A stretch of 64,000 bases of DNA from Oscillospiraceae bacterium (lineage in GTDB: Bacteria; Bacillota; Clostridia; Oscillospirales; CAG-382): the NCBI GenBank assembly GCA_015065165.1, contig SVQU01000009.1, positions 66 through 64,065 on the forward strand, written 5' to 3'. This document shows, one piece after another, positions 46,875-64,000 of the stretch (positions are counted from its first letter, which is position 1; each line of letters opens with the position of its first letter). The notes below the pieces were generated by a model, which worked only from the letters and a program-made list of their open reading frames with translations, had not been told where the DNA came from and ran no database searches. Made by a program: the position numbers and the translations under genes.

Positions 46875-46888
46875 ATCGTGCAAAGATA

Positions 46889-46917: not shown

Positions 46918-46960
46918 AAATAGGAACGTAAAAAAACGTAAAATAAAAGGAGAATTAACC

Positions 46961-49645
46961 ATGAACTTGGCAAAACGTTTAATTGCTTTGGCTGTTGTTG
47001 CGGTTTTGCTTGCTTCCTCTTGCATTTTTGTAAGTGCGGCAATGCTTACCTCCAAGGGCGGTCATAACGTAACCAGCGACGGCGCGGTAGTTTATAAAAA
47101 ATTCAGCGCTGCCGGTGCACATACCGAAGATGCAACCGTGCTTGAATTTAACCCTAAAAACGGCTATATTCCCGTTGCATTCGACGGAGCACCCACCAGC
47201 GTTGCTTCTATCCCCACCCAATACAGCACCGCTGTTAATACTTACGGCTATGAGGTTGCAGGCGTAATCAACGCAGGCTACTTCACCATGTCCACCAGCA
47301 CTCTCGAGGGTATGGTTATCACCGACGGCAAGCTTGTTGCCGCTACCAGAGGTGCGTCTACCATTGTTGCTTTCGGTAACAACGGCAGTATGGATATCGT
47401 TACCACCCAGCCTAAATATACCGTTGGTATCAACGGCAAAAGCCTCGAAAACCCCATTTGGTTCTTCAATAAGGAATATAAGGATGCAGGCTCTACCGAA
47501 AGAGGCGCTTATATGTTCTATTATGACTACAGCGCAAACGCAAAGACCTCTTATTCCGAATCCGGTACCGAAGTTCTTTTCGAAAAGCTTGACAATTCCG
47601 AGCTTTCTTACGGCGAAACCTTGGTTGGTAGAGTTGTAAGCAAAAAGACCTCTACCACAGGCAGCACCACTATCGCTAAAAACCAGTTCGTTCTTTTTGC
47701 AAAGAACGGCTCTACCTATGTAAACGAGCTTAACTCTCTTGCTGTGGGCAATAAGGTTACCATTAACATTACCGAAACCAACGCAGGCGCAGTTACCGTT
47801 ATGAACAACGCAAACAGCGTTCTTAACAATATCGACTATCTTGTTAAAGACGGTCAGAACTACACCATCGGCAAAACCTCTGTGGGCGGACATAACCCCA
47901 CAACCACCTATGCACGTTGGACTGCATACGGCGTTAAGGCAGACGGCACCTACGTATTCCTTACCACCGAAGGCGGCTCTACCGGTGTAAGCTCCCGTTC
48001 TCTTACTCTCAGAAACGTTGCCGATATCCTTATCGAGCTCGGCTGTGTAACCGCAGTTCGTCTTGACGGCGGCGGAAGTACAGGTATGTACGTTTCCAAC
48101 ACAGGCTCCGGCAACGCAGGCTGGGTTATGACGGGTCAGCGTTCTGTTGCAGATACCATTCTCGTTGTTAAGAAATCCAGTATGCACGATGCAACTCTTG
48201 AAACTAAGTTGAAATCTGCAATCGCCACCGCAAAGCAGACCGCAGGCTCTAACGCAGGTATTCTTAAAGCAATTTCCGAAGCAGAAGCAATGATTGGCAC
48301 CAACGCTACCGAAGGTCAGCTTCGTAAGGCTATCATCAGTCTTTCTCCCAAGGCAATGCTCGGCGCGGCTCTCGCAAAGTGCGACGTTTTGAACATCGGT
48401 GAATATACCGAAACCGACCTTGCGGCTCTCCGTACCGTTTACGATGCAGCAAAGGCTGTTTACAATTCCGATTCTGCTACCGATGCTCAATATTCCGCAC
48501 AGACCACCAAGGTTTACTCGGCATTGGATAAGAGCGCGAACGTTATTCTTTCCGCAGGCGCGGCTTACACCACCACCGCACCCAACCGCGGCGACGGACA
48601 CGACGACGACAAATATCGTCTTACCGACGGCACAAAGGGCGGCTTGGACCTTTCTCAGTACAGCTATTCCGGCTGGAACGTAAATTCTCTTTCCAACCGT
48701 ACCGTTAATATCGACGTAGACCTTGGCGCAGTTCAGTCCTCCAACACCTTTACCGTTTATATGGCGGCAGGTATGTGGGGTATCGGCGCACCCTCTGCTA
48801 CCTTAAGCGTTTACACCTCTACCGACGGTGTTAACTACACCTCTCTCGTAGGTACTTCTACCACCAGAACCTCTGTGGGCTCTGCTGTTGTGGGCTCCGA
48901 AACCTGCAATACCTATACCTACACCGTTAAGAGCAACTCCAACGTAAGCGCACGTTACGTTAGATTCGCCGTTAAGAACAGCGTTAACTTCACCTGGATT
49001 GACGAGGTTGAGGTTTCCCGCACCAACGGCAACGCAAGTAACGTAGTTACCAATTACACCAAGATTCAGAGCTTCAATACCAAGATTACCGCGGGCTCTT
49101 CCACCATCTTCACCCCCGATATGGGCGCGCTCACTCAGAGCAATGCAAACCACACCTGGTCCAGCAATATTATTTGCGAGCTTCAGTCCGACGGCAGCTA
49201 CGTTGTAGTTGAAAACGTAAGCTGGCATGCAGACAGCAACAAGACTATCACTCTTAAGAGCAACCAGATTATGATTTGTGCTCACAGCGATCCTACCGTT
49301 GCGGGAAGTGCTGCAAACGCATCCAACTTGGGCGCGGCGCAGGTTGGTCAGGTTCTTAAGGTTTACGGTATCGACCTTGCAAACAAAACAATCAGCGCGG
49401 CTGCATACGTTCAGTTTGAAAATCCCGCCGAGCCCGAACCCGATTATTACCTTGGCGATATTAACAACAACGGCAGCTTCGAGGCTATGGACTACAACCT
49501 TCTTAAGCGTGCATATTTCGGCGTTTACGGGTTGGCTATCGAAGCAGCGGGCGACCTTAACGGCAACGGCGAAATCGATGCAATCGACTATGCTATGCTT
49601 AAGCGCGCATACTTCGGCGTGTACCCCCTCGATTGGATTAACTAA
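46961..49645 (+). CDS. secreted phosphodiester glycosidase (NAGPA/DUF2233-like) with discoidin-like module and dockerin
   Basis: 894-aa ORF with AAGGAG RBS and a signal peptide. 'AGVINAGYF...GMVITDGKLV' and 'VTAVRLDGGGSTGMYV' fit the phosphodiester-glycosidase fold. It has a discoidin-like module ('ARYVRFAVKN..WIDEVEV'), a module shared with the GDPD paralogs, and C-terminal dockerin repeats 'GDINNNGSFEAMDYNLLKRAYFGVY' / 'GDLNGNGEIDAIDYAMLKRAYFGVY'. Confidence 0.7.
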   Translation: MNLAKRLIALAVVAVLLASSCIFVSAAMLTSKGGHNVTSDGAVVYKKFSAAGAHTEDATVLEFNPKNGYIPVAFDGAPTSVASIPTQYSTAVNTYGYEVAGVINAGYFTMSTSTLEGMVITDGKLVAATRGASTIVAFGNNGSMDIVTTQPKYTVGINGKSLENPIWFFNKEYKDAGSTERGAYMFYYDYSANAKTSYSESGTEVLFEKLDNSELSYGETLVGRVVSKKTSTTGSTTIAKNQFVLFAKNGSTYVNELNSLAVGNKVTINITETNAGAVTVMNNANSVLNNIDYLVKDGQNYTIGKTSVGGHNPTTTYARWTAYGVKADGTYVFLTTEGGSTGVSSRSLTLRNVADILIELGCVTAVRLDGGGSTGMYVSNTGSGNAGWVMTGQRSVADTILVVKKSSMHDATLETKLKSAIATAKQTAGSNAGILKAISEAEAMIGTNATEGQLRKAIISLSPKAMLGAALAKCDVLNIGEYTETDLAALRTVYDAAKAVYNSDSATDAQYSAQTTKVYSALDKSANVILSAGAAYTTTAPNRGDGHDDDKYRLTDGTKGGLDLSQYSYSGWNVNSLSNRTVNIDVDLGAVQSSNTFTVYMAAGMWGIGAPSATLSVYTSTDGVNYTSLVGTSTTRTSVGSAVVGSETCNTYTYTVKSNSNVSARYVRFAVKNSVNFTWIDEVEVSRTNGNASNVVTNYTKIQSFNTKITAGSSTIFTPDMGALTQSNANHTWSSNIICELQSDGSYVVVENVSWHADSNKTITLKSNQIMICAHSDPTVAGSAANASNLGAAQVGQVLKVYGIDLANKTISAAAYVQFENPAEPEPDYYLGDINNNGSFEAMDYNLLKRAYFGVYGLAIEAAGDLNGNGEIDAIDYAMLKRAYFGVYPLDWIN

Positions 49646-49666
49646 AGCAAAATAACGATATGCCCA

Positions 49667-49697
49667 AAAGGACGGAGGCTTTCCCTCTGTCCTTTTT
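49667..49697 (+). terminator. rho-independent terminator
   Basis: AAAAGGACGGAGG-CTTTC-CCTCTGTCCTTTTT. Confidence 0.75.
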
Positions 49698-49728
49698 CTG
49701 TTTTGAAAATATTGTAAGGAAACCTAAT

Positions 49729-50118
49729 GTCATCCCAAGCGAAGGTGATTTTTAATCACCGTAGCCGAAGGATATAGGCAACCTTTTTCGGTCGGTCGAG
49801 GACGCCCGACCCTACAAATAATGTTAAAACGGGCGATTCGTGAATCGCCCCTACCATCTTGAGAGTGGGCAATCTTATTGCCGTAGCCGAAGGATATAGA
49901 ATGATGAAGAATGAAAAATGAAAAATGAAAAATGAAGAATGAAGAATGAAAAATTGAGGTAGGCTTTCGGATTTTTTCCTCCGAAAGCCATTTTTATTTT
50001 AAAATATTGTAGGGGTGGGCGTCCTCGACCACCCGCAGGATAACGTTACGTATAAACCCACGTTAAAGCTTGTATCCTTCGATTGCGTCGGTTGCGCCGC
50101 CTCGGCTTGGGATGACAG
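49729..50118. repeat. dense cluster of REP-like palindromes and short repeats
   Basis: GTCATCCCAAGCGAAGG..CCGTAGCCGAAGGATATAG occurs at 49729-49777, partially at 49867-49900 and inverted at 50071-50118. GGTCGGTCGAGGACGCCCGACCCTACA is at 49790-49816. GGGCGATTCGTGAATCGCCCCTAC is at 49831-49854. TGTAGGGGTGGGCGTCCTCGACCACCC is at 50008-50034. Confidence 0.7.
49899..49954. repeat. 7-bp tandem repeat A(G/A)AATGA, ~8 units
   Basis: AGAATGA TGA AGAATGA AAAATGA AAAATGA AAAATGA AGAATGA AGAATGA AAAATTG, read directly from the sequence. Confidence 0.8.
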
Positions 50119-50238
50119 CGCAAAAAAATGCTCCCGCCGTTTCTGCTGTTTTCGGTGAGGAACGAGCCAAAAATATATCGAAAACATATTAAACATATAA
50201 ATAAATTGTAAACTTCGATTTAACTCCGCTATCCGCCA

Positions 50239-50267
50239 TTGACAAACACGTAACACCGTGATATCAT
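50239..50267 (+). promoter_or_regulatory. sigma-A promoter candidate
   Basis: TTGACA (50239-50244), 17-nt spacer, TATCAT (50262-50267). The same TTGACA-17-TATCAT layout occurs at 61018-61046. Confidence 0.55.
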
Positions 50268-50302
50268 CAAGTTAACATTATAACATAAAAGGAGATACAA
50301 AT

Positions 50303-53300
50303 ATGAAAAGATTAATTTCGTTTCTTGTTGTTGCCGCCATGCTTTTATCGCTTTTTGCGGTTGCACCTGCCGCGGCAGATTATGACACAACGGGAAATAT
50401 CGCGCTTGGCTGTTCCTATGAGGGAACGGGCTATGCGGTTTCCGGCGGTATGTGGCCTGCGTCCTACAACGCAAACCTTACCGACGGTTTGACAGCCACA
50501 GACCTTTACGGCACAGACAATTGGTTTGGTTTTTCCAGCAGCGAAAGCGACAACGGTATTAACGCTCCCGACAAAATCGGCGTCGTTATAATCGACCTTG
50601 GCGAAATTAAAAGCTTCAAATCCATCAAGGTTAACACCTTTGTTGGAAACGAATCGGGCATTACCAGACCTGAAAAAATCACTGCTTACGTTTCTGACAC
50701 CCGCGACGGTGTTTTCGAAACCCTTGGAGATTTCCAATACGGCGAAGTTGTAAATAATATCGCTTGGGCTATCCTTAACGCCGAAGCTTCCGGCAGATAT
50801 GTAGCTATTGAGGTTGAACTCGGCAGCGGCGTGTTCGCTTTCATCAACGAAGTTGCTGTTTACGAAGAAGAATCTGACGGCATCATTGAAGACCAGCCCG
50901 ACGTTCTTCCCGAATACAACGAAGCTTACGCTTATGACACCACCGGCAACGTGGCTCTTAACAAGACCTACGATGCTAAGGGTTACAAGCGCGGCGGCGA
51001 ATGGCCCGTTAACTACGTAGCTCCCCTTACCGACGGTCAGGCTTGCAACGAAGTTAAGTTCGACAACAACTGGTTTGCTTTCTGCACCAGCGCAGGCGAC
51101 TACGGTCCTAACACTAACAATGGTATTGGTACCGTTACCGTTGACCTCGAAAAGGTTCACAATATCGATTCTATCAAGGTTAACACCGTAGTTGGTAAAA
51201 ACGTTGAGGGTTCAGGCATAAACGGCCCCTATAAGATTTCCGCTTACATCAGCGATACTGCTGACGGAGATTTCACCTATCTCGGCGACCTTACCATCGG
51301 CGAAGGCGTAAATGGCGTTGCTTGGGCAGAGCTTTCTACCGAGGCTACGGGCAGATTTGTGAAAATCGAAATAATTCTTGACGGTTTTTTCGCTTTCATC
51401 AACGAAATCGCTGTTTACAGCGAAGATGCGAGCCAAGACGGTCCCTCCAAGCCTACCAACGACCAGGTAGATCCCGATCCTAACCCCGACCCCGAACCTC
51501 CTTTTGATGAGCTTCTCGGCGAAGAAAACGAAAACCCTGCGTTTACAATGGATATCACCGCGCCCGAAAGCTATGCCGCAGGCGAGGAGGTTGTTGTAAC
51601 CGTTACGGTTAATAACGCGAATACCGCCCTTCAATACGTAAATGGACATCTCTATTTCGACACCGACGTTCTTGGCTTTGACTTTGGATTGACAGAAGAC
51701 AGAGAACTAAGCGGTTCTCTTGTTGAATTTGCGGAATGGGAGGATTTCTGCGCCCTCAAAAAAGATGAAAACGGCAATTGGTACGTACGCATTCAAGCGC
51801 TCACCGCCGGTGATTACGATAATGATGGTAACTATATCTACACTGACAACCTAAACGACGGAGATATTACGTTTAACATCAAGTTCGTCGCCCTTGAGGA
51901 TGCAACCGATGACACTGTTGTATATATTCCTCACAACACCGTTATTGGTGCTTACGTAGACCCCCAAACCTACGAATCCTTCGACTACGTTGGTAACGGT
52001 TCCTTGGCGGAAATCAGTAAGGGCGAATCCAACGGTGCATACAACGGCCCGTTGACCTTTGAACTTGCGGAAAACGGCGAATATTACATCGTTTCGTATT
52101 GTGATGAAGAAGCAGTTTCGGTTGTTATTCCCGAAACCTACAACGGATTGCCCGTTAAGGAAATCGGCAATGATGCGTTCTGTTACTGCACTGAACTTAC
52201 CGACGTTACAATCCCCGATACCGTAACAAAAATAGACGATTATGCATTTGCTTTTTGCTTTAATTTGAATAACGTGATGTTCTCCGAAAACCTAACTTCT
52301 ATCGGTGAATATGCATTTGAAAGCTGCGACCTTTACAGCATATATATTCCCGATTCGGTTACTGAAATCGGATATCTTGCTTTTGACGGCAACTCGTATC
52401 TTACAAGTATAACCGTCGAAGACGGAAACCCCGTATATCATTCCGCGGGTAACTGTCTTATCGAAACCGCAACCGGAGCTCTTATTAAAGGCTGTAACAA
52501 GAGCGTTATTCCTGACGACGGAAGCGTTAAGACTATCTTCAATCATGCTTTCGCTTATTGCTACGGCTTGTCAAATATCAATATCCCCGATTCTGTAAAG
52601 TATATTCATAGCGAGGCGTTTATAAGCAGCGGGCTTGAAAAAATAACCATACCCGATTCGGTAGAGTTTATCGGCGATTTCGCTTTTTACGCTTGCGAAA
52701 ACCTTACCAAGGTAGAAATTTCCGCTTCGGTTGAAGTTATCGGAGTATACGCGTTTGTTTGCGGCGAAAGCCTTGAAAGTATAACCGTTGAAGACGGAAA
52801 TGAATTTTATCATTCTGCGGGAAACTGTCTTATTGAAACCGCAACAAAAACTCTGATTGCAGGCTGTAAAAACAGCGTTATCCCCACGGACGGAAGCGTT
52901 GAAATTATTGGCGATTATGCATTTTTCGGCGCTTGCCATTTAACCAGCATTACAATTCCCGAAACCATTATCTCTATTGGCAAATATACTTTCTATGATT
53001 GTTTCGGCTTGACGAGCATAATAATTCCCGATTCCGTGGAATTTATCGGTGAATACGCTTTTGCTTGGTGCTATAGCCTGACCGATATTTATTGCGAAGC
53101 CGAATCTCAACCCGAGGGTTGGGCAGTTAACGGTTACGATGATTATTTGGAAGAATGGCATGGTAGTTGGAATGACGATTGCGATGCAACCGTTCATTGG
53201 GGCTGGGTTATTGAAAACGACAACTCCTCTGACGTAGATTCTTCCGACATCGTAGATTCCTCCGACATTGAAGATTCCTCCGACATTGAAGATTCCTCCG

Positions 53301-53542
53301 ACGAATCCGACAACTCCGACATAACCGAACCCGAACCCGAAAAGGTTAACAAGGGCGACATTGACGGAGACAGCGATATCGATTCTATGGACTATCTCTA
53401 TCTTAAGAGAGTATACTTCAGCCAGTATAAGGTTGACGACATTACAATAGGCGATATCGATAACGACGGAGTAATCACCAGTATGGACTACCTCTATCTT
53501 AAGAGAGTATACTTCAGCCAATATATAATTAAGGAAAACTAA
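50303..53542 (+). CDS. secreted discoidin x2 - cohesin-like - BspA-type LRR - dockerin protein
   Basis: 1079-aa ORF with a signal peptide. It has two ~165-aa discoidin/F5-8-type-C-like modules ('YDTTGN(I/V)AL...NLTDG...DNWF(G/A)F...SIKVNT(F/V)VG...FAFINE(V/I)AVY'). A cohesin-like beta-sandwich segment 'NPAFTMDITAPESYAAGEEVVVTVTVNN...LYFDTDVLGFDF...ITFNIKFVALEDA' lies at about 51535-52020. LRR_5/BspA-type repeats ('IPD(S/T)V..IG.YAF..C..L') lie at about 52050-53100. An Asp/Ser linker follows, then dockerin repeats 'GDIDGDSDIDSMDYLYLKRVYFSQY' / 'GDIDNDGVITSMDYLYLKRVYFSQY'. Confidence 0.7.
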   Translation: MKRLISFLVVAAMLLSLFAVAPAAADYDTTGNIALGCSYEGTGYAVSGGMWPASYNANLTDGLTATDLYGTDNWFGFSSSESDNGINAPDKIGVVIIDLGEIKSFKSIKVNTFVGNESGITRPEKITAYVSDTRDGVFETLGDFQYGEVVNNIAWAILNAEASGRYVAIEVELGSGVFAFINEVAVYEEESDGIIEDQPDVLPEYNEAYAYDTTGNVALNKTYDAKGYKRGGEWPVNYVAPLTDGQACNEVKFDNNWFAFCTSAGDYGPNTNNGIGTVTVDLEKVHNIDSIKVNTVVGKNVEGSGINGPYKISAYISDTADGDFTYLGDLTIGEGVNGVAWAELSTEATGRFVKIEIILDGFFAFINEIAVYSEDASQDGPSKPTNDQVDPDPNPDPEPPFDELLGEENENPAFTMDITAPESYAAGEEVVVTVTVNNANTALQYVNGHLYFDTDVLGFDFGLTEDRELSGSLVEFAEWEDFCALKKDENGNWYVRIQALTAGDYDNDGNYIYTDNLNDGDITFNIKFVALEDATDDTVVYIPHNTVIGAYVDPQTYESFDYVGNGSLAEISKGESNGAYNGPLTFELAENGEYYIVSYCDEEAVSVVIPETYNGLPVKEIGNDAFCYCTELTDVTIPDTVTKIDDYAFAFCFNLNNVMFSENLTSIGEYAFESCDLYSIYIPDSVTEIGYLAFDGNSYLTSITVEDGNPVYHSAGNCLIETATGALIKGCNKSVIPDDGSVKTIFNHAFAYCYGLSNINIPDSVKYIHSEAFISSGLEKITIPDSVEFIGDFAFYACENLTKVEISASVEVIGVYAFVCGESLESITVEDGNEFYHSAGNCLIETATKTLIAGCKNSVIPTDGSVEIIGDYAFFGACHLTSITIPETIISIGKYTFYDCFGLTSIIIPDSVEFIGEYAFAWCYSLTDIYCEAESQPEGWAVNGYDDYLEEWHGSWNDDCDATVHWGWVIENDNSSDVDSSDIVDSSDIEDSSDIEDSSDESDNSDITEPEPEKVNKGDIDGDSDIDSMDYLYLKRVYFSQYKVDDITIGDIDNDGVITSMDYLYLKRVYFSQYIIKEN

Positions 53543-53555
53543 TTCCATAAACGAA

Positions 53556-53588
53556 AGAGCTGACACAATATGTGTCGGCTCTTTTTTG
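53556..53588 (+). terminator. rho-independent terminator
   Basis: AGAGCTGACACA-ATAT-GTGTCGGCTCT followed by TTTTTGTT. Confidence 0.75.
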
Positions 53589-53627
53589 TTGCCGTGGCTA
53601 TGGTGAAAACAACCCAAAATATTTTAC

Positions 53628-53656
53628 TTGAATAATGGGAAAACCTGTGTTATAAT
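53628..53656 (+). promoter_or_regulatory. sigma-A promoter candidate
   Basis: TTGAAT (53628-53633), 17-nt spacer, TATAAT (53651-53656). Confidence 0.55.
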
Positions 53657-53686
53657 GATAAAAAAGCAAAAAGGAGTATATAGTTT

Positions 53687-56038: not shown

Positions 56039-56043
56039 AAAAC

Positions 56044-56290: not shown

Positions 56291-56317
56291 AGGCTAAACC
56301 CTCTGTCCTTTTGTTTT
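56283..56317 (+). terminator. rho-independent terminator (probably the original terminator of the SGNH gene)
   Basis: AAGGACAGAGG-CTAAAC-CCTCTGTCCTT followed by TTGTTTT. Confidence 0.7.
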
Positions 56318-56448
56318 GATACCGTTTGATTAAAGCCGATTTTGTGATATGTAAAAATACAGGACAGAACGTTTGGTTTTTGGGGTATAGCACAATTTTT
56401 TGGTGTGTTAATTGTATAAAGTGCCAATGCGAAAATGTCAAAAATCCA

Positions 56449-56477
56449 TTGAAAAGATAAAAGATTTTTGGTATAAT
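56449..56477 (+). promoter_or_regulatory. sigma-A promoter candidate
   Basis: TTGAAA (56449-56454), 17-nt spacer, TATAAT (56472-56477). Confidence 0.55.
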
Positions 56478-56518
56478 GATAAGCGCACATGCTATAAAAA
56501 CTCACAAAGGAGAAAATT

Positions 56519-59500
56519 ATGAAACGTACATTAAGCTTTATCGTTACGTTGGCGATGTTGCTTTCACTGTTCACCGTTTTTGCGGTTACACCCGCTTCTG
56601 CGGCAACAGTTATCGGCAATAATTCGCCCGCTATCCGTGCAAACGTTGGCGAGACAATCACTCTTTCCAACTATTCGGTTACCTTCGATGGCGATACTAC
56701 CGCTACCTCCAACGTTACTTGGAAGAACGGCAGCAGCACCATCACCACCTTTAAGCCTACCGCTAAAGGCGTAACCACTCTTACCGCTACCAGCGGCAGC
56801 AAAACCAAAAACATTTACGTTGTTGCAAAGAATTCTTCCGATACCGAATATGTTCTTTATGAAGCAACAATGTCTAACTTCAGCTCTGTTTCTGCTCTTA
56901 CAAGCGCAGGTTGGACCTTTACCAACTCCGCCAGAGCTTCCAAGGGCAGCGACGGCGCGTTGGTTCTCGGCGTTACCGGCAAATGGGATGCTACCAGCGC
57001 ATATCTTCCTTCCTGGTTGGGTGATTTCGGTAACTATAAGTTTTCCGCGAACGTAAAGTTCAGCGCCTTTGCCGAAAGCGATAAATCCCGTTGGTTCTCG
57101 CTTATGACACGTACGGAAAACCGTACCTGCACCGCCCACTATACTCACGCGGCTTTCCGTGGCAACAATACCGCCTCTAACGGTATCGAGTTTGCTGAAA
57201 GATACGCTACTGATTCCGGAAGCGATTGGAACGTTGCTCTTAAAACCCCCGGTACTTATACCGACCTTACCGATGCTTACCGCGATTTCAGCATTCTCTC
57301 TGTAGATAACACCTTCCGTGTGGATATCGCAGGCAAGCAGATGATTTACGTTGCTCCCTCCTCCTACCTCTCTTTGTCTAAAAAGCAGGTTTACAAGGGA
57401 CATCTCGGTTTCCAGGCTTCGGGCTGTACCATCGCAATAAAGAGCGTTAAGATCACTCTTGAGGATACCGTTCCCGAAGAAATTATCGATACAAAACTTA
57501 TTTATAACAGCTATCACGATGCGGATAACCTCGTTAACCCCATCGCTAATATTCAGAGAGTTTCCAGCGTTACCGCGGCAAACCTCGATAAGCTTTCGGT
57601 TGCATATATCGACCTTACCACCGGTGTAAATGCTCAGACCGCATTTAAAACCTGTATAGACAACAAGGTTGTACCTACCTTCTATGCAACCACCACCGCT
57701 CATGCAGATGCGATTATTGCGGCTTCTACCGCGTTGGGCTCTACCGACGCTACCGTTGTTTCCAACAACAAAACCGTTCTTAACCGTATCAGAGTTCACT
57801 CTACCGCTTATCCTATCCGTACAGGTCTTGTTGTGGATATTTCCACCCAGATGGCAGACGGCACCATGACCGATTACGAAGCCGACGAAATCCGTCGCGA
57901 CGTTCGTGCAATTCCCGCAACCTTCATTCTTATCGAAAGCAAATATGCCACCAAGCAGGCGGTTGCCGAGCTTCAGGAAATGGCTCTTGCGGTTTGGGTA
58001 AACGTTACTTCTACCCCCAACACCGATGCATTTAACATCGAAGCTATGAAGGCTATCACCTCCGGCGCAAACGGTCTTGTTTCCAACAGCGCGGCAGGCG
58101 TTTCTTCTCTTATTAAAACCCACATTCAGGCAAGAGCATTCACCCGTACACCTATCACCATCGGTCATAGAGGTAACCCCGGTGTTGCTGCCGAAAACAC
58201 TATCGAAAGCTTCCAGGCTGCTTATGAAAACGGCGGCGACGTTTTCGAAATCGACGTTGAATGTACCAAGGACGGCGTTATCGTTATTCTCCATGACGGT
58301 ACTCTTACCCGTACTACAACCTATACAGGCTCTACCTCTATCAGAAATATGACATGGGCGGAGGCTAAGAAATATCACGTTCTTGACCTTAACGGTAACT
58401 CCACCGGCAAGCCTATCCCCACCTTGAAAGAGGTTCTCGACTGGGCAAAGGGCAAGGATATTAAGATTTTCGTTGAATTTAAGGATAATTCCACCACCTG
58501 CGTAAACGGCACTATGGCTGATATCGTAGAACGCGGTATGACACAGCAGGTTGATATTATCTCCTTTAATACCACCGCACTTAAGCTTGCAAGAACTGCA
58601 GTTCCCGGTATCTCCACAGGTTATCTTAACGGTAACGATATTACCGGTTCTACCTATTCTATGGCTCTTAAGCTCTTCGAAGGCAGAATCGAACCCGCAC
58701 AGCGCGAATGGTCCACCGTTAACTGCGGCAGCTATAACAACCAGGTTACTAACCTTGCGGTTCAGGTTGCTACCGACCGCGGTATGACTATGTGGCCCTG
58801 GACCTATGGCTACAGCAACACCTCTGCTGCATTCTTCGACTGTCCCGACGGTATCACCACCGACAATATGGAAGTTATGAAGGATATGGTTAAGACCGTT
58901 CATGCAAAGAACTTTGTAATGCTTCCCGGTCAGACCTACGGCGGCGGCGCGCTTACCTCCGAAACCTACGGTAACACTCTTACCAGCGTTAGCGCAAACA
59001 ATACAATCGTTTCGGTTGTTGCAGGCGACAGCGTTAAGGTTGAAAACGGCAAGCTTGTTGCTGTTAAAGAAGGTATCTCCACCGTTGTTATGGCGGTTAA
59101 ATCCTGGACCTACCTCGGTAAAGAATATATCGTATACAGCCAGCCCGTTCAGGTAAGAGTAGGCACAGGCGACCCTGCGGTTCTCGAGCCTCTCGTTGAA
59201 ATGGCAAAATCGGCTACCATCAATTCTCTTTCCGAATCTGACCTCGCAACTCTCCGTGAATATTGCGACAAGGCTGTTGCACTTATCAACAGCTCTAACC
59301 CCAAGGAAGCCGAAGTTAAGGCAACCGCAGAAGCATTGAACAATATCATTGCTAAGTTCATCGTTGAAAAATATATCGCTCCTGCTCCCAACTATTATAA
59401 GTGGGACAGCGCAACAGGCGGCCCCAGCACCGAGCTTAACGAAACCTATGTCGACGACGGCGTTCGTCTTGTAGACGGTAAGAAGAGCCATGTTGCAGGT

Positions 59501-60460
59501 AATACCAATGCATATTCCGCATGGCAGAAGACCTCCGACGGCAAGATTGAAATCATTCTCGATTGCAGCAACCCTGCCCAGAGAGATACCTTCAAGGCAT
59601 ATTTCGCCTCTAACAGCATTTGGGGTGTTAAGGCGCCTGCAAATATGGAGGTTTCCTATTCTACCGATAACAAAACCTTTACACAGTTGGGCGGCGCTAC
59701 TCTTACCAAGCGTCAAATTCCCGACGTGGGCGAATTGAGCGACAACGTTTGGAGCCGTTGGGAATACACCGTAAAAGCTCCTTCGGTTGTTACCGCAAGA
59801 TATTATAAGTTCACCATCTATTTCGAGGGCAGCTTCATTTGGATTGATGAAATCGAAGCCGCTAACGAAAGCAGCGATCTTATTTATATTAATAAGGTTA
59901 ACAACAGAATTAATGCAGGCGAAGCGGGTATTTATACCTCCTCCTTCGGCGAATTGAACAAGCAAACCGCAAACAACATTTGGACAGTGAATATCACTGC
60001 AAAATGGGATGCTTCCAAGGATGCGTACGTGGTTAGCAACGTAGCCTTCGGCGACGGCACCGACAAGCCCGTAACTATTGCTTCGGATGAAATTTATATC
60101 GCTGTTCACGAATGGGAATTGAACACTCTTGATGAAATGCCCGTTGTCGGCAGTGCTCATAACTTGAATCTTGCAAAGGTTGCACAGGTTGGCGACGTGG
60201 TTGAATTCTACGGTATCGATACCGATACTTGGGAGTTCGGCCCTGCACCCAGCATTAAGTTTGTAAGCGAATCCAACAAGGGCGACCTCAACGACAACGG
60301 CGAAATCGATGCTGTTGACTACTCCTTGCTGAAGCGTGCATACTTTGGTATCTTTGCCAGTAATAGCAGTGTTTCTGATATTAATGGCAACGGTGAAGTG
60401 GATGCGGTAGACTACTCCTTGCTTAAACGTGCATACTTCGGTATTTACAGCCTTGCATAA
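56519..60460 (+). CDS. secreted multidomain glycerophosphodiester phosphodiesterase (GDPD) with C-terminal dockerin (paralog 2)
   Basis: 1313-aa ORF with the same architecture as 12461-16363; the N-terminal ~130 aa are nearly identical by eye. Canonical GDPD core 'GHRGNPGVAAENTIESFQAAYENGGDVFEIDVECTKDGVIVILHDGTLTRTT'. Discoidin-like module ('ARYYKFTIYF..WIDEIEA'). Dockerin repeats 'GDLNDNGEIDAVDYSLLKRAYFGIF' / 'DINGNGEVDAVDYSLLKRAYFGIY'. Confidence 0.88.
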   Translation: MKRTLSFIVTLAMLLSLFTVFAVTPASAATVIGNNSPAIRANVGETITLSNYSVTFDGDTTATSNVTWKNGSSTITTFKPTAKGVTTLTATSGSKTKNIYVVAKNSSDTEYVLYEATMSNFSSVSALTSAGWTFTNSARASKGSDGALVLGVTGKWDATSAYLPSWLGDFGNYKFSANVKFSAFAESDKSRWFSLMTRTENRTCTAHYTHAAFRGNNTASNGIEFAERYATDSGSDWNVALKTPGTYTDLTDAYRDFSILSVDNTFRVDIAGKQMIYVAPSSYLSLSKKQVYKGHLGFQASGCTIAIKSVKITLEDTVPEEIIDTKLIYNSYHDADNLVNPIANIQRVSSVTAANLDKLSVAYIDLTTGVNAQTAFKTCIDNKVVPTFYATTTAHADAIIAASTALGSTDATVVSNNKTVLNRIRVHSTAYPIRTGLVVDISTQMADGTMTDYEADEIRRDVRAIPATFILIESKYATKQAVAELQEMALAVWVNVTSTPNTDAFNIEAMKAITSGANGLVSNSAAGVSSLIKTHIQARAFTRTPITIGHRGNPGVAAENTIESFQAAYENGGDVFEIDVECTKDGVIVILHDGTLTRTTTYTGSTSIRNMTWAEAKKYHVLDLNGNSTGKPIPTLKEVLDWAKGKDIKIFVEFKDNSTTCVNGTMADIVERGMTQQVDIISFNTTALKLARTAVPGISTGYLNGNDITGSTYSMALKLFEGRIEPAQREWSTVNCGSYNNQVTNLAVQVATDRGMTMWPWTYGYSNTSAAFFDCPDGITTDNMEVMKDMVKTVHAKNFVMLPGQTYGGGALTSETYGNTLTSVSANNTIVSVVAGDSVKVENGKLVAVKEGISTVVMAVKSWTYLGKEYIVYSQPVQVRVGTGDPAVLEPLVEMAKSATINSLSESDLATLREYCDKAVALINSSNPKEAEVKATAEALNNIIAKFIVEKYIAPAPNYYKWDSATGGPSTELNETYVDDGVRLVDGKKSHVAGNTNAYSAWQKTSDGKIEIILDCSNPAQRDTFKAYFASNSIWGVKAPANMEVSYSTDNKTFTQLGGATLTKRQIPDVGELSDNVWSRWEYTVKAPSVVTARYYKFTIYFEGSFIWIDEIEAANESSDLIYINKVNNRINAGEAGIYTSSFGELNKQTANNIWTVNITAKWDASKDAYVVSNVAFGDGTDKPVTIASDEIYIAVHEWELNTLDEMPVVGSAHNLNLAKVAQVGDVVEFYGIDTDTWEFGPAPSIKFVSESNKGDLNDNGEIDAVDYSLLKRAYFGIFASNSSVSDINGNGEVDAVDYSLLKRAYFGIYSLA

Positions 60461-60493
60461 TAGAAAACCGTAAAAGTATAAAATAATATAACC

Positions 60494-60719
60494 ATAAAAG
60501 CCGAGGACACGTGATCCTCCCCGCAAAATGTAATTTTGCGGGGACCCCATTACTCGGCTTTTATACCTTAGAGGTTCGCAAGTTTGGACAAGATGCAAAG
60601 CATCGCGCACAAACTTGGCGCGAGCAACGGACCCTAAAAACGCCCGCGTTTTAAAGGGGTAGTGTCCGAACCTCAAAAAACGCACGAAAATAGGTGTTTT
60701 CGTGCGAGAGCGAAGCGAC
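60494..60719 (+). repeat. structured interspersed repeat, copy B (family 'S')
   Basis: H0 arms ATAAAAGCCGAG/CTCGGCTTTTAT (60494-60564) enclose ACACGTGATCC plus a CCCCGCAAAAT..ATTTTGCGGGG module. Then follow ACCTTAGAG, P1 (60571-60578/60667-60674), P2 (60579-60586/60610-60617), GCGCGAGCAACGG, hairpin ACCCTAAAAAC..GTTTTAAAGGGG, H4 (60681-60706) and tail AGAGCGAAGCGAC ending at 60719. Confidence 0.7.
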
Positions 60720-60722
60720 AAC

Positions 60723-60829
60723 CGTGCATACTTCGGTATCTACAGCCTTGCATAAAAGAAAATCGTAAAAGCATAAAACAAAATAAGTATATAACGATAA
60801 AAGCCGAGGCGTATGTCCTCGGCTTTTAT
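60723..60829 (+). pseudogene. orphan diverged duplicate of the last 10 codons + stop + terminator of the 56519-60460 CDS
   Basis: CGTGCATACTTCGGTATCTACAGCCTTGCATAA (60723-60755) differs at 1 of 33 positions from 60428-60460. The following 3' flank and terminator arms (AAAAGCCGAGG/CCTCGGCTTTT) are also duplicated, with a few substitutions and indels. Confidence 0.8.
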
Positions 60830-61017
60830 AGTTTTACTGACAGAACAAATGTTTCTGCGTCGTGCGCCATATTTTGCGCTTCGATTTTTTCTTGCTGTCT
60901 ATTTCTTGTGGTTTCGAGCAAACAGAGGTGTCCGAATGGGGCGATGGAAAAGCAGAAAACCAAGTATTTTGGCGGTTTTTTTGTACACATTTTGTCTATT
61001 AAAACCAATAAGTAATA

Positions 61018-61046
61018 TTGACAATAGGGCGATTTTGTGGTATCAT
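61018..61046 (+). promoter_or_regulatory. sigma-A promoter candidate
   Basis: TTGACA (61018-61023), 17-nt spacer, TATCAT (61041-61046). About a 90-nt leader precedes ATG 61139. Confidence 0.55.
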
Positions 61047-61138
61047 TACAATGTATATATGTGGACTTCGATATTTCGCTATTCGAACCGATTTCGGAAT
61101 ACCGTTTCCCAAAAAATCAAAAGAAAGGAACTCCCAGA

Positions 61139-64000
61139 ATGAAGAAGATTATTTCTATTCTTCTTGTTATAGCAATGCTTTCTACCATGTTCACAGCATT
61201 CGTATTTCCCGTTGCTGCGGCAGGTCAGTCTCTTGCTATTAACGCGATCAACCCTTCTGCGATGGCTCCCGGTATTTCTGCAATTTATACGCAGGCATAC
61301 ACCATCGACGGTTATCAGGAAAACGTGGCGTTTTCTCCCGTTTCCGGTAACACCTTTAAAGTAACCGCAAAATCCGGCTACAGCTGGGACGAAACTCAGG
61401 GCGATATTCTCTCCCAAGCACTCGCAATTCCTGCGGGCGGTTTCGTTTGGTCTGTACAGTGGTCCAGCGATTACTCTCTTGACGATGCAATTAAGTTTGC
61501 AAAGTCTTTGGTTGTTGGCGATACCTTTGAGGTTAGCGGCCTCGATATCGCAAACGGCACTTACACCGACGTAGTTCTTACTGCTGTTGCTGCTGACGGC
61601 GGTTATGACACCACCAACAACGTAGCACGCGGCAAAACATATGATGCTGTAGGTTACGGCGGATACACCGCAAACCTTACCGACGGTGTAGCTGCAAGCG
61701 AGCTTACTTATGACAACAATTGGTTTGCTTTCTATAACAACCCCGGCAACGAAGGCATAAACGCTCCCGACGGCGTTGGTACTGTTACCATCGACTTGGG
61801 CGCAGATTATGACCTCAGCGCTGTTAAGGTTAACACCTTTGTTGGCAGCGAATCCGGTATTGTTAAGCCCACCAAGATGGAAGCGTTCGTTGCATCCGCA
61901 ACCGGCGATTTCGTATCTGTTGGTGAATTGGCTTATACCGACAACGGCACCAACGTTCAGTGGGGTGTTGTAAACACCACCGCAAAGAGCGTTCGTTACG
62001 TTAAGGTTGCAGTTACTCTCAACGGCACCTTCGCGTTCATTAACGAAATTGCTGTTATCGGCGAAAAAGCTGCTAACGATACTTATGACACCACCGGCAA
62101 CGTGGCTCTCGGAGCAACTTACGATGCTAAGGGTTATAAGTCCAGCGGCGAATGGCCTTCTGAATATAACGCAAACCTTACCGACGGTAAGGCTGCACAG
62201 GCTCTTTCCTATGATAACAACTGGTTCGGCTTCTGCAAAACCGATGCAGGCGACAACGGTCTTAACGCTCCCGATGGCGTTGGTACCGTAACTCTCGACC
62301 TCGGCAAGAAGTGCGACATCAACTCTATTAAGGTTAACACCTTTGTAGGTAACGAATCCGGTATTGTTGCTCCCGAAAAGATGACCGCTTATATCAGCGA
62401 CACCGCTGACGGCGAGTTCACCTCTCTCGGCGACCTCACTATCGGTACCGGCGCAAATAACGTTGCTTGGGCAACTCTTAACAAGACCGCTTCCGGTCGT
62501 TTCGTTAAGATCGAAGTTACTGTAACCGGCAGCTTCGCGTTCATCAACGAAATTGCAGTTTACGGCGAAGAATCCAAGGAAGTTTCTCCCGAGGATCTTA
62601 TGGGTACTCCCCATGCTAACCCCAACTTCACTATGGACATCACTGCTCCTTCCACCTACAAAGCAGGTGAAGAAGTTGTAGTTACCGTAACCGTTAACAA
62701 CGTTAACGCTTCTACCGGTCTTCAGCACGTACACGGTAAGCTCTATTTCGACCACAACCTCTTCGGCTTCGATGTAGCGCTTAAGGATAAGCAGGAACTT
62801 AAGAATACCTTCCAGGGTTATGAAGAATGGGAAGATATGACCAGACTTCGTACCGATGGTTCCATCTGGTGGGTAGAACTTGACGCTACCACCGCCGGTT
62901 ATGAAGATCCCGATAACCCCGGTTCTTACCTTATCTCTGATGTAACCGAGGACGGTCTTCTCGTATTTAACGTTAAGTTCATCGCTCTTGCCGATGCAAG
63001 CGACGATACTATCGTTTATATCTCCAACGTTACTACCGACGGCAAGAATAACGTATACGGCGACCACTATGCGATGGAAGAACCTTACACTCACACTCCT
63101 TACGTAGGTAACGGTTCTTACGCTACTATCGCATTCAATGCAGATAGCGGCAACGAATCCTCCGAAGTAGTATCTTCCGAGGTTGAATCCTCCGAAGTGG
63201 TTTCTTCTGAAATCGAATCCTCCGAAGTAGTATCTTCCGAAGTAGTATCTTCCGAAGTTGAATCTTCTGAAGTAGTATCTTCCGAAGTAGTATCTTCCGA
63301 GGTTGAATCCTCTGAAGTAGTATCCTCCGAGGTTGAATCCTCTGAAGTAGTTTCTTCCGAAGTTGAATCCTCCGAAGAATCCTCTACTCCCGAAGTTTCC
63401 GAACCCGAAATCACCGACGACAGACCTTTCATCCCCTCTACCCCTGCAGCAACTCCCGGTTACGATACCACCGGTAACGTAGCACTCGGTAAGTCTTATA
63501 ACGAACAGGGCTTTGGTGGCTACACTGCAGGTCTTACCGACGGTTTGGCTGTTCAGGAACTTACCTATGATAACAACTGGTTTGCATTCTGCACCACTGC
63601 AAACGAAAACGGTTATACCAACGCTCCCAACGGTGTAGGCTCTGTTGTTGTTGACCTTGCTAAGGTTTACGACATCAGCTCTATCAAGGTTAACGCTATC
63701 GTTGGCGAAAACGTTGACAGCTCCGGCATTTACGGTCCCGCAAAGATTACTGCTTATATCAGCAACACTCTTAACGGCACCTATAAGCTTCTTGGCGACC
63801 TCACCATCGGTGCAGGCACCAATAACGTAACCTGGGCAACTCTTGACAAGACCGCTTCCGGTCAGTTCGTTAAGCTCGAAGTTGCTCTTAACGGCACCTT
63901 CGCATTTATCAACGAAATCGTTGTAATCGGCGAAGAACCCGCAAGCGTCGATGACCTTATGGGTACACCTGTTGCTAACCCCAACTTCACCATGGACATC
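61139..64000 (+). CDS. scaffoldin-like secreted protein with repeated discoidin + cohesin-like modules (3' end outside window)
   Basis: This ORF is not in the supplied track because it has no stop in the window. My hand translation from ATG 61139 (AAAGGAA RBS) stays open to 64000 (>950 codons). It has signal peptide 'MKKIISILLVIAMLSTMFTAFVFPVAAA'. After a ~130-aa N-terminal region come discoidin-like modules starting about 61606, 62083 and 63463. Cohesin-like segments 'NPNFTMDITAPSTYKAGEEVVVTVTVNNVNA...LYFDHNLFGFDV' start about 62620 and again at 63980. A (SSEVV/SSEVE)n linker is present. It is paralogous to 50303-53542. Confidence 0.8.
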   Translation, partial: MKKIISILLVIAMLSTMFTAFVFPVAAAGQSLAINAINPSAMAPGISAIYTQAYTIDGYQENVAFSPVSGNTFKVTAKSGYSWDETQGDILSQALAIPAGGFVWSVQWSSDYSLDDAIKFAKSLVVGDTFEVSGLDIANGTYTDVVLTAVAADGGYDTTNNVARGKTYDAVGYGGYTANLTDGVAASELTYDNNWFAFYNNPGNEGINAPDGVGTVTIDLGADYDLSAVKVNTFVGSESGIVKPTKMEAFVASATGDFVSVGELAYTDNGTNVQWGVVNTTAKSVRYVKVAVTLNGTFAFINEIAVIGEKAANDTYDTTGNVALGATYDAKGYKSSGEWPSEYNANLTDGKAAQALSYDNNWFGFCKTDAGDNGLNAPDGVGTVTLDLGKKCDINSIKVNTFVGNESGIVAPEKMTAYISDTADGEFTSLGDLTIGTGANNVAWATLNKTASGRFVKIEVTVTGSFAFINEIAVYGEESKEVSPEDLMGTPHANPNFTMDITAPSTYKAGEEVVVTVTVNNVNASTGLQHVHGKLYFDHNLFGFDVALKDKQELKNTFQGYEEWEDMTRLRTDGSIWWVELDATTAGYEDPDNPGSYLISDVTEDGLLVFNVKFIALADASDDTIVYISNVTTDGKNNVYGDHYAMEEPYTHTPYVGNGSYATIAFNADSGNESSEVVSSEVESSEVVSSEIESSEVVSSEVVSSEVESSEVVSSEVVSSEVESSEVVSSEVESSEVVSSEVESSEESSTPEVSEPEITDDRPFIPSTPAATPGYDTTGNVALGKSYNEQGFGGYTAGLTDGLAVQELTYDNNWFAFCTTANENGYTNAPNGVGSVVVDLAKVYDISSIKVNAIVGENVDSSGIYGPAKITAYISNTLNGTYKLLGDLTIGAGTNNVTWATLDKTASGQFVKLEVALNGTFAFINEIVVIGEEPASVDDLMGTPVANPNFTMDI
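63155..63390 (+). repeat. in-frame 15-bp tandem repeat encoding (SSEVV/SSEVE)n linker, ~15 units
   Basis: TCCTCCGAAGTAGTA / TCTTCCGAGGTTGAA units read directly from the sequence. The 104-aa minus-strand ORF 63118-63432 ('TSEDSTSEDTT...') is its mirror image. Confidence 0.85.

Follow-up and report, generated by a model that had tools for sequence, protein, structure and literature searches.

Organization of the Dockerin and Cohesin Gene Cluster

The stretch of DNA analyzed here, termed the window throughout, comprises 64,000 nucleotides (nt) of contig SVQU01000009.1 from an uncultured gut Oscillospiraceae bacterium (GenBank assembly GCA_015065165.1), and it harbors genes for secreted dockerin- and cohesin-bearing proteins, consisting of five genes on the same strand within positions 46961–64000 (genes A to E) and a related sixth gene on the opposite strand (gene F), as listed in Table 1. 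A signal-peptide-like N-terminus was read directly in all six proteins. Gene E is cut by the end of the window, and its remainder was supplied by a 72-kb JGI contig (L001) that is identical to the window across 17482 nt. Exact copies of the A, D and F proteins were found in the NCBI metagenome-assembled genome (MAG) "Ruminococcaceae or Oscillospiraceae bacterium" under the tags E7586_03390, E7586_03510 and E7586_03525; the cluster tags span E7586_03390 to 03525, and the three cluster genes that were looked up are all named 'hypothetical protein' there.

Catalytic and Accessory Modules

The catalytic domains recognized in the preliminary description of this DNA, namely two glycerophosphodiester phosphodiesterase (GDPD), one NAGPA and one SGNH domain, all scored above the Pfam gathering cutoffs (25 bits for NAGPA, 23.6 for GDPD, 32.9 for GDSL/SGNH, 22.9 for Dockerin_1, 28.2 for F5_F8_type_C and 24.1 for Cohesin), and a BspA-type leucine-rich repeat (LRR) region was found in addition in gene B. 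The phosphodiester glycosidase domain of gene A (NAGPA; PF09992, DUF2233) reached 80.9 bits over amino acids (aa) 223–402, with weak PDB matches to human NAGPA (6pku/6pky, 5e-4) and to the DUF2233 structure 3ohg; by family definition, NAGPA-type enzymes cleave the glycosidic bond of GlcNAc-1-phosphodiesters. The SGNH/GDSL domain of gene C (aa 37–225) scored 67.4 bits with Pfam Lipase_GDSL_2, with a further match of 50.9 bits, and its four SGNH blocks (GDS, G, GxND and DxxH) are all kept, in the form of FGDSLT, GVGGN, GMND and DGIHQS. The GDPD domain of gene D (aa 550–785, 108.7 bits) has intact HRG, E, D and HD motifs (read as HRG, ENT, EID and LHD), which are the catalytic and metal-binding motifs, and its PDB relatives are distant, comprising chains 9euf/9eul of a 'GP-PDE domain-containing protein' named ORF58 (about 4e-14, source not given) and Bacillus subtilis GlpQ 5t91 (9.7e-11). 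Gene F carries a GDPD domain of 98.0 bits at aa 536–760, and D and F are full-length paralogues with 51% identity; the N-terminal regions of about 540 residues in both proteins returned no Pfam match. Small glycerophosphodiesters are the classical substrates of GDPD enzymes. The LRR_5 region of gene B scored 225 bits in Pfam, and a partial NCBIfam match to the LRR adhesin HupY/LrrG was observed; the encoded protein probably serves as both adaptor and adhesin. No NCBIfam match came near any curated cutoff and no equivalog cutoff was reached, the GDPD proteins included. The absence of glycoside hydrolases (GH) claimed earlier for the cluster was likewise borne out, since Pfam detected no such module in the dockerin proteins A, B, C, D and F of the window.

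The enzymes A, C, D and F share a common C-terminal cassette of 350–450 residues, made up of a discoidin module, with or without a further module termed X, and a dockerin; the C-terminal 430 residues of A are homologous to those of D and F. Discoidin modules had been described on every enzyme, and all of them are indeed mutually homologous by BLAST and hidden Markov model (HMM) comparison, but the Pfam cutoff for F5_F8_type_C was exceeded only in C (two modules, 77.4 bits) and F (36.2 bits), with sub-threshold values in B (3.2e-5; 24.5 against 28.2 bits), E (1.1e-3) and D (0.021) and no match in A, so the modules of A, B, D and E were assigned through their homology to the C and F modules. In bacteria, most F5/8-type-C modules belong to the carbohydrate-binding modules (CBM) of family CBM32, and the scaffoldins described below carry such discoidin-like modules, not CBM3-type cellulose binders. 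The X module, about 125 residues long, immediately precedes the dockerin in A, D, F and a GH25 enzyme of another MAG, and it is N-terminal in E; no Pfam or PDB match to it was found, even when it was used as a profile, and it may be a stabilizer of the X-dockerin type.

Divergent Cohesin Family

The modules of B and E that had been called cohesin-like turned out to be cohesins by family profile, by predicted structure and by the sub-threshold Pfam score of the isolated domain. The full-length B and E proteins gave no match to Pfam Cohesin even at E ≤ 1, and a single-sequence phmmer search of the module against the PDB returned noise only. A HMMER search of 1.84 billion representative proteins with the B and E modules as query recovered 83 representatives (50% identity), in nearly all of which local HMM mapping located one to four copies of the module, and the family profile and alignment were made of 73 module sequences from these representatives. 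With this family HMM the cohesin of B (aa 401–581) scored 1.4e-55 and the four cohesins of E about 4e-54 each (cohesin 1 at aa 484–675). When the 73-sequence profile was compared with the PDB, cohesins took all of the first ten places and 20 of the 22 listed, with E-values ranging from 3e-6 to 1e-3, the best being 4ums (3.2e-6) and the others including Clostridium acetobutylicum 6kg8, Ruminococcus flavefaciens ScaC 5lxv, 1g1k and 2vn5.

The structural comparison gave a matching picture. An AlphaFold (AF2) model computed with the 73-member alignment reached a predicted local distance difference test score (pLDDT) of 95.6 and a predicted template modelling score (pTM) of 0.90, and a two-sequence run with a pLDDT of 49 was discarded. 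The best Foldseek matches of the model in the PDB were cohesins, such as 2jh2 (2.6e-6), 2vo8 (TM 0.79), 6kgd, 1g1k, 2vn5 and 4fl4. As isolated domains, 62 of the 73 family members matched Pfam Cohesin (PF00963) at E ≤ 0.01, the best at 7.7e-14, and isolated cohesin 1 of gene E scored 20.0 bits, under the 24.1 cutoff. The modules contain about 190 residues against the usual 140 or so, owing to insertions. Profile and predicted fold thus identify the B and E modules as genuine but divergent cohesins. The nine cohesin modules compared fall into two main groups: group I consists of E1–E4, Sca2_2 and Anc_1, which are 73–92% identical to one another; group II consists of the B module and Anc_2, which share 60% identity between them and about 50% with group I; and Sca2_1 is intermediate, with 52–58% identity to all others.

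Dockerin Classes

Five proteins (A, B, C, D and F) had been said to end in a duplicated calcium-binding segment, and each of them exceeded the Dockerin_1 cutoff, with 37.2 bits for A, 27.6 for B, 36.6 for C, 40.4 for D and 41.8 for F. A dockerin is defined by two calcium-binding loop-helix repeats of about 22 residues, and two repeats per module were read directly here. The consensus motif given earlier for this segment fits in general, except that gene C has LKRAYYG instead of the YF form. At the DNA level, the pattern for DYxxLKRAYFG occurs six times in the window and that for DYLYLKRVYF twice, against 0.00 expected from shuffles in both cases.

The dockerins fall into two classes. The alpha class, EID[AS][VI]DYx[ML]LKRAY[FY]GIY, was observed on all eight enzymes found, and the beta class, DIDSMDYLYLKRVYFSQY, on B, E and a second scaffoldin (described below), all three of which bear cohesins, giving a clean split of alpha dockerins on 8/8 enzymes and beta dockerins on 3/3 cohesin-bearing dockerin proteins. 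The simplest wiring that we infer from these sequence classes would connect alpha dockerins to group I cohesins and beta dockerins to group II cohesins.

Scaffoldins and Surface Anchoring

Gene E, in whose visible part cohesin-like modules had been noted, encodes a full protein of 2349 aa, a scaffoldin with four cohesins and a dockerin of its own. Its modules follow the order signal peptide, X, two discoidin-like modules, cohesin 1, SSEV linker, three discoidin-like plus cohesin pairs, a further discoidin-like module and a beta-type dockerin, with linkers rich in Ser, Glu and Val between them. A 15-nt periodic repeat at 63127–63407 corresponds to the SSEV(V/E) linker of E with 13 copies in register, and similar SSEVE or SSDIE linkers occur across the cohesin family; Ser-rich linkers of this kind may be O-glycosylated and tend to collapse during sequence assembly. 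In gene B, an acidic Ser/Asp linker lies between the LRR_5 region and the dockerin.

Two further scaffoldins were found outside the window. The second scaffoldin (contig L058) has 1155 aa arranged as discoidin–discoidin–cohesin–discoidin–cohesin–beta dockerin. The third, P0001 (contig L057, from the same ENA study), combines discoidin with two cohesins, one of group I and one of group II, and ends in PVTGD, a transmembrane segment and a KTRK tail. The C-terminus of the 83 family representatives is mostly either a dockerin or a conserved PxTGD/PGDAS motif followed by a hydrophobic stretch and KTRK, a tail whose sequence pattern marks it as a predicted wall- or membrane-anchor signal. The anchored tails (P0001, P0007, P0011, P0022–P0034 and others) read P-x-T-G-D-A-S or V-P-G-D-A-S and then SMIxFAIIALVAIAGSAVVIKTRK; because many of them are without the Thr of LPXTG, the tail may be a distinct sorting signal and not a classical sortase A signal. 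No sortase gene was seen adjoining the P0001 locus on L057. A multi-cohesin scaffoldin (E, with four cohesins and a dockerin) and a surface-anchor tail (P0001, probably of the same organism) are thus both present, and the predicted layout is that of a hierarchical cellulosome-type cohesin-dockerin assembly of the Ruminococcus type. About 6 kb from the anchored scaffoldin, at L057 18610–22288 on the minus strand, lie a secreted protein with two discoidin modules, DUF4855 and Big_9 (869 aa, without dockerin) and a GH172 protein, which may represent further undocked glycan-processing enzymes of the same organism.

Census of the Dockerin-Bearing Payload

Further loci were searched for with the discoidin-X-dockerin cassette as query, followed by contig look-ups. 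Homologue searches with the cohesin module or the dockerin alone gave nothing useful, and the word index seems to miss domain-sized queries; a scan of metagenome contigs with the organism's own dockerin DNA motif returned one unrelated contig only. Two small dockerin proteins of other organisms (P0096 and P0097) were set aside as they added nothing. A second cluster was found on contig L058, which is assigned to the same MAG because it contains E7586_00575, the second SGNH esterase; the cluster comprises a 236-aa Metallophos protein, the SGNH-discoidin-discoidin-dockerin enzyme, the second scaffoldin and a 1263-aa purple-acid-phosphatase-like (PAP-like) Metallophos-discoidin-dockerin protein. 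Contig L061, from the same sample and with the same dockerin class, encodes a 760-aa protein in which an unknown module is joined to a discoidin and a dockerin, and it also carries a second PAP-like gene, with the module order Metallophos-discoidin-discoidin-dockerin. An in-frame TAG at 9998–10000 of L061 splits this PAP-like gene into open reading frames of 720 and 313 aa and recurs in L062 (at least two samples); it could reflect a pseudogene, a strain-fixed nonsense mutation or read-through. In total, eight alpha-dockerin proteins were attributed to the organism, seven of them with a recognized catalytic domain (two GDPD, one NAGPA, two SGNH and two PAP-like), and no plant-fiber glycoside hydrolase was found among its 11 cohesin/dockerin proteins in this discoidin-biased census.

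An unbiased census was obtained by scanning 185,579 GTDB species genomes, among which the window's species is not contained, with the dockerin DNA motif. The buffalo-caecum MAG RGIG7271, a different organism, carries 26 dockerin genes by this motif alone: two GDPD, one NAGPA, two PAP/Metallophos, one GH25 muramidase, two CHAP, four LRR_5, two adaptors with cohesin plus dockerin, one Cthe_2159, three with discoidin only, one with Zn-ribbon repeats, seven with no recognized domain, and no cellulase, xylanase or other fiber GH. The GH25 muramidase of a further MAG shares the same discoidin-X-dockerin cassette. Because the set recurs with two different dockerin/cohesin lineages, it appears to be a functional enzyme set and not chance passengers. 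A fiber-directed payload of carbohydrate-active enzymes (CAZymes) was sought but did not turn up, within an own-genome census that is incomplete, and on that ground the system is not a cellulosome in the strict sense.

Proposed Function and Alternative Explanations

Taken together, these modules incline us, by a small measure, to the view that the cluster encodes a hierarchical cell-surface cohesin-dockerin complex that dismantles phosphodiester-linked envelope polymers, chiefly wall and lipoteichoic acids. In such a complex, the secreted alpha-dockerin enzymes (GDPD, NAGPA-like, SGNH and PAP-like) would plug into the group I cohesins of E and Sca2; the beta dockerins of E, B and the second scaffoldin would pair with group II cohesins, including one on the anchored scaffoldin; and E and Sca2 would thereby be attached to the anchored scaffoldin, with or without the LRR adaptor B in between. 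The CBM32-like discoidin modules and the BspA-type LRR would hold the complex on a glycan-bearing target surface, where the SGNH esterase would strip acyl or D-alanyl substituents, the GDPD would remove glycerol-phosphate units and so depolymerize the chains, the NAGPA-like enzyme would cut sugar-1-phosphate linkages (GlcNAc-1-P repeats or the GlcNAc-1-P-MurNAc linkage unit), and the PAP-like phosphatases would release inorganic phosphate. The targets would be envelopes of other microbes or dead cells, the gain phosphate, glycerol and sugar, and antagonism a possible side effect. Bacterial walls are considered as the target because the peptidoglycan hydrolases of relatives (GH25 and CHAP) point there, and teichoic acid or phosphoglycan is the most likely substrate, with phospholipid head groups as its main rival and nucleic acids or the cell's own wall as further alternatives. 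When phosphate is limiting, growth is supported by secreted GlpQ-type GDPD enzymes, which take glycerol-phosphate units off unsubstituted wall teichoic acid exolytically, S. aureus GlpQ scavenges the teichoic acid of other staphylococci, and the GDPD domain of WhyD frees teichoic acid from pneumococcal sacculi (PMC7086022, PMC9208761).

A number of observations weigh against this reading. The pairing of cohesins with dockerins is read from their co-occurrence alone, and the placement of P0001/L057 and of L061 in the same organism as the window is deduced from shared samples and module types. The nearest PDB relatives of the gene C SGNH domain are generic GDSL lipolytic proteins and acetyl-xylan esterases, and its weak NCBIfam match is to lysophospholipase L1, so that a lipid or plant-acetyl role remains for this enzyme, whose action as a teichoic acid de-esterase is presumptive. 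GDPD enzymes also hydrolyze small phospholipid-derived glycerophosphodiesters. In the GDPD of gene F, GHAGN (14700–14760, minus strand; aa ~533–536) replaces the GHRGN of D and of the family consensus, while the other catalytic and metal motifs are kept (ENT, ELD and LHD), and given the HAG it may have impaired activity or altered specificity. Discoidin-less GH dockerin proteins would be missed in the organism's own genome because that census, which is partial and biased, used the cassette query, and the unbiased census is from another organism, RGIG7271. The earlier proposal of a cellulosome-style complex specialized for phosphodiesters therefore stands as regards the modules, the scaffoldins and the non-GH payload, whereas the pairing and the substrate stay presumptive.

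Other explanations can be set against the envelope-polymer complex. A 2025 review of cellulosomes cites proposed roles of cohesin-dockerin systems in protein or lipid breakdown (PMC12484212), and the same complex might act on membrane phospholipid, with SGNH as a (lyso)phospholipase, GDPD acting on glycerophosphocholine, glycerophosphoethanolamine or glycerophosphoglycerol, the PAP-like enzymes freeing phosphate and the discoidins binding membranes like the C domains of factor V/VIII. This we judge unlikely, though it is the strongest of the rivals: weak NCBIfam matches link C to lysophospholipase L1/TesA and D and F to lysophosphatidylglycerol phospholipase D, but all these scores lie far under the curated cutoffs, and the nearest PDB neighbor of C is a 'G-D-S-L family lipolytic protein'. 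The classical GDPD substrates would also suit it; however, NAGPA-like glycosidases have no role in phospholipid breakdown and yet occur with GDPD in both organisms, the GH25 and CHAP enzymes of the same dockerin system, GH25 with the same cassette, point to the bacterial wall, and the usual ligand of bacterial F5/8-type-C modules is carbohydrate. Somewhat less likely again is maintenance of the cell's own envelope, in which the cohesin-dockerin system would replace SLH or LysM anchoring of autolysin-like enzymes, accompanied by LRR adhesins. Bacteria do use enzymes of the WhyD/GlpQ type to trim their own teichoic acids (PMC9208761), the folds of GH25 and CHAP are typical of autolysins, and the clusters lie among housekeeping genes, but a four-cohesin scaffoldin with seven CBM-like modules and adaptors is elaborate for housekeeping and resembles substrate-targeting scaffoldins, every enzyme carries a discoidin module, the paralogues (two GDPD, two SGNH and two PAP) suggest nutrient acquisition, and the strong individual promoters are suggestive in the same direction without being more than that.

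The possibility that these proteins are minor non-CAZyme passengers of an ordinary fiber cellulosome, as occur in Ruminococcus flavefaciens and rumen metagenomes, had been named beforehand as a finding that would overturn the proposal, and it now appears improbable. CAZy modules were present in only 24% of 649 dockerin proteins of rumen metagenomes, where peptidases and lysozyme are known (PMC6487960), and the census of the own genome is incomplete; on the other hand, fiber GH were found in 0/11 proteins of the organism and 0/26 of RGIG7271, so that both the own loci and this MAG argue against it, and the scaffoldins carry discoidin-like and not CBM3-type modules. Very improbable, in our judgment, is that no complex forms at all, the dockerin-like segments being calcium-binding stabilizers or binding otherwise and the cohesin-like beta-sandwiches being spacer or adhesion domains: the score of E cohesin 1 under the Pfam cutoff could be read in that way, but dockerin classes and cohesin groups co-vary, the multi-cohesin proteins among the 83 representatives mostly end in a dockerin or an anchor, and the structural likeness to cohesins solved in dockerin complexes (6kgd, 2vn5 and 4fl4) is strong.

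The envelope-polymer complex can be carried further, as a tentative proposal that we regard as possible rather than probable. The system would then be a 'teichoicosome', a dedicated surface nanomachine of uncultured herbivore-hindgut Oscillospiraceae and related Clostridia, in which divergent cohesins and two dockerin specificities would co-localize teichoic-acid or phosphoglycan phosphodiesterases, an 'uncovering' glycosidase for the linkage unit, esterases and phosphatases, with relatives adding GH25 and CHAP; it would dismantle Gram-positive neighbors or dead cells for phosphate and carbon, perhaps with LRR-mediated contact-dependent antagonism.

Comparison with Known Systems and Significance

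Cohesin-dockerin assembly is the textbook answer to insoluble plant polysaccharides, and the amylosome of Ruminococcus bromii, a cohesin-dockerin complex of a gut Ruminococcaceae species re-purposed for a non-fiber substrate with GH13 amylases that act on starch, is the precedent for a further use of this chassis. The present system differs from the amylosome in its phosphodiester and ester hydrolases and in its presumed substrate, which is not a neutral polysaccharide. The closest architectural counterpart is the R. flavefaciens cellulosome (ScaA/ScaB/ScaC and the sortase-anchored ScaE), which likewise belongs to the Oscillospiraceae/Ruminococcaceae lineage and has several dockerin/cohesin specificities, dockerin-bearing scaffoldins, a single-cohesin adaptor, an anchoring scaffoldin with a C-terminal sorting signal and LRR dockerin proteins. 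In contrast to it, a phosphoesterase/esterase payload was found here and no cellulases or hemicellulases, the scaffoldins have repeated discoidin modules, the cohesin family is small and divergent, and an X module precedes the dockerin. The NagH/NagJ/NanJ complexes of Clostridium perfringens (with CBM32 and FIVAR modules) are similar in being non-cellulosomal, in combining cohesin with F5/8-type-C modules and in addressing glycoconjugates of other cells, and the cohesins of this species (2jh2, 2vo8 and 2w1n) are the best structural matches by Foldseek; there, however, the enzymes pair mutually, there is no multi-cohesin scaffoldin, and GH84 and GH33 enzymes act on host glycans with no phosphodiesterases.

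On the enzymatic side, the GlpQ-type teichoicases of Bacillus subtilis and Staphylococcus aureus and WhyD of S. pneumoniae share the GDPD fold, the extracellular location and the proposed role in teichoic acid or phosphate scavenging (PMC7086022, PMC9208761), whereas they are free single-domain or membrane-anchored enzymes with a catalytic size of about 30 kDa, in contrast to the 1300-residue multimodular proteins described here, which would be assembled with partner enzymes on a scaffoldin. Bensoussan et al. (2017) reported rumen dockerins fused to peptidases and lysozyme-like modules and suggested a role in 'attack or defence' (PMC6487960); their survey differs in treating isolated open reading frames, without describing a scaffoldin or a coherent locus, and phosphodiesterases and phosphatases go unmentioned in the main text (PMC6487960). 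A full-text literature search found no published dockerin-GDPD system, and dockerin combined with teichoic acid or phosphodiesterase gave nothing relevant. The assembly chassis is thus one already known, whereas its coherent payload is new and its cohesin family divergent. If the envelope-polymer complex is real, a chassis loaded with phosphodiesterases, phosphatases and esterases, joined in relatives by muramidases and amidases, would extend the principle to phosphate-rich microbial envelope polymers, a chemically different class of insoluble substrate; it would offer a molecular route for dead-cell and phosphorus recycling in the gut and might account for some antagonism between bacteria. 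Designer complexes could then draw on its new cohesin-dockerin specificities, its enzymes would be candidates for degrading teichoic acid in work against Gram-positive biofilms, and a testable function would be gained for MAG genes that are called 'hypothetical protein' in the one source naming them.

Expression Signals and Feature Coordinates

Every gene of the cluster had been credited with its own promoter, a strong ribosome-binding site and a terminator. Five of the seven best sigma-70-like promoter sites of positions 46000–64000 lie 44–93 nt upstream of the start codons of A to E, with hexamer matches of 12/12, 11/12, 10/12, 11/12 and 11/12 and an extended -10 TG in four of them. All six genes have AAAGGAG as their ribosome-binding site except E, where it reads AAAGGAA. 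Terminator-like hairpins were found after A, C and D, but the scan of 46000–64000 flagged none after gene B, which qualifies this part of the claim.

Table 1. Positions of the genes, modules and expression signals in the window (nt of the window; strand as given).
Feature	Gene	Position	Strand	Description
Gene	A	46961–49645	+	894 aa; signal peptide, NAGPA, discoidin-like, X module, alpha-type dockerin
Gene	B	50303–53542	+	1079 aa; signal peptide, two discoidin-like, group II cohesin, LRR_5, linker, beta-type dockerin
Gene	C	53687–56038	+	783 aa; signal peptide, SGNH/GDSL, two F5_F8_type_C, Pro/Asp linker, alpha-type dockerin
Gene	D	56519–60460	+	1313 aa; signal peptide, Ig-like/unknown N-terminal region, GDPD, discoidin-like, X module, alpha-type dockerin
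Gene	E	61139–64000 (cut by window end)	+	Primary scaffoldin; whole protein 2349 aa
Gene	F	12461–16363	-	1300 aa; signal peptide, Ig-like/unknown N-terminal region, GDPD, F5_F8_type_C, X module, alpha-type dockerin
NAGPA domain	A	47627–48166	+	
SGNH/GDSL domain	C	53795–54361	+	
GDPD domain	D	58166–58873	+	
GDPD domain	F	14084–14758	-	
Cohesin	B	51503–52045	+	Group II
Cohesin 1	E	62588–63163	+	Group I
LRR_5 region	B	~52070–53182	+	BspA-type
X module	A	49046–49426	+	~125 residues
X module	D	59873–60262	+	~125 residues
X module	E	61223–61594	+	~125 residues
X module	F	12668–13057	-	
Dockerin	A	49451–49642	+	Alpha-type
Dockerin	B	53351–53539	+	Beta-type
Dockerin	C	55856–56035	+	Alpha-type
Dockerin	D	60278–60457	+	Alpha-type
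Dockerin	F	12491–12643	-	Alpha-type
Promoter-like site	A	46889–46917	+	TTGACA, 17-nt spacer, TATAAT, 12/12
Promoter-like site	B	50239–50267	+	
Promoter-like site	C	53628–53656	+	
Promoter-like site	D	56449–56477	+	
Promoter-like site	E	61018–61046	+	
Terminator-like hairpin	after A	49666–49696	+	
Terminator	after C	56283–56310	+	
Terminator	after D	60797–60829	+	
Structured 3' untranslated element, copy 1	after C	56061–56231	+	~170 nt
Structured 3' untranslated element, copy 2	after D	60530–60719	+	~190 nt

Other Features of the Locus

Two copies of a structured element were observed in the 3' untranslated regions (UTRs) after genes C and D. The copies share the left terminus TATACCTWWGASGTTCGCRAG and the right terminus GAGAGCGWAGCGAY, and the latter motif has two matches only in the window. 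Copy 1 is followed by an exact 59-nt duplicate of the end of gene C (56002–56060 equal to 56232–56290) and then by the terminator, and copy 2 by an 87%-identical duplicate of the end of gene D (60425–60499 versus 60720–60794) and then by the terminator; the duplicated gene ends consist of the last coding bases, the stop codon and 25–40 nt more. An apparent compensatory change in the outer stem was seen by eye (GACGTTCG/CGAACGTC versus GAGGTTCG/CGAACCTC), and a two-sequence automatic alignment registered the copies poorly. No Rfam family was found for either element, and neither a transposase nor a reverse transcriptase was noted in the annotation of the neighboring genes. An RNA of the 3' UTR or a small mobile element are two possible readings. 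A diversity-generating retroelement was considered and rejected, as the repeats are short, one pair is identical, the other is without an adenine-specific pattern by eye and there is no reverse transcriptase nearby.

Contig L003 (ENA ERZ27248351 k141_2108440) is 100% identical to the window from 53482 on, and upstream of this point it shows another locus with thrC, Metallophos, an SGNH-dockerin gene and a 1095-aa scaffoldin, which is separate in the same MAG (L058). Because the switch falls inside the shared beta-dockerin repeat, L003 is regarded as an assembly chimera or a recombination of the two clusters. It was accordingly rejected as evidence for a different gene order or for mobility, since it diverges inside that repeat and matches the L058 locus.

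The remainder of the window consists of housekeeping genes, such as those for tRNA synthetases, RNase J, RNase Y, SpoIIE, proline biosynthesis, Maf and ABC exporters, and this set, SpoIIE included, indicates a spore-forming Firmicute. At 29728–31026 and 31188–33350 lie the genes for a LysM plus GH18 protein and a SpoIIE phosphatase, which are of sporulation type, without dockerin and outside the complex; this GH18 is the only GH module in the window. At 37533–43019 on the minus strand, a DUF1854 gene lies between two large fused ABC exporter genes (737 and 874 aa), with no apparent link to the dockerin cluster.

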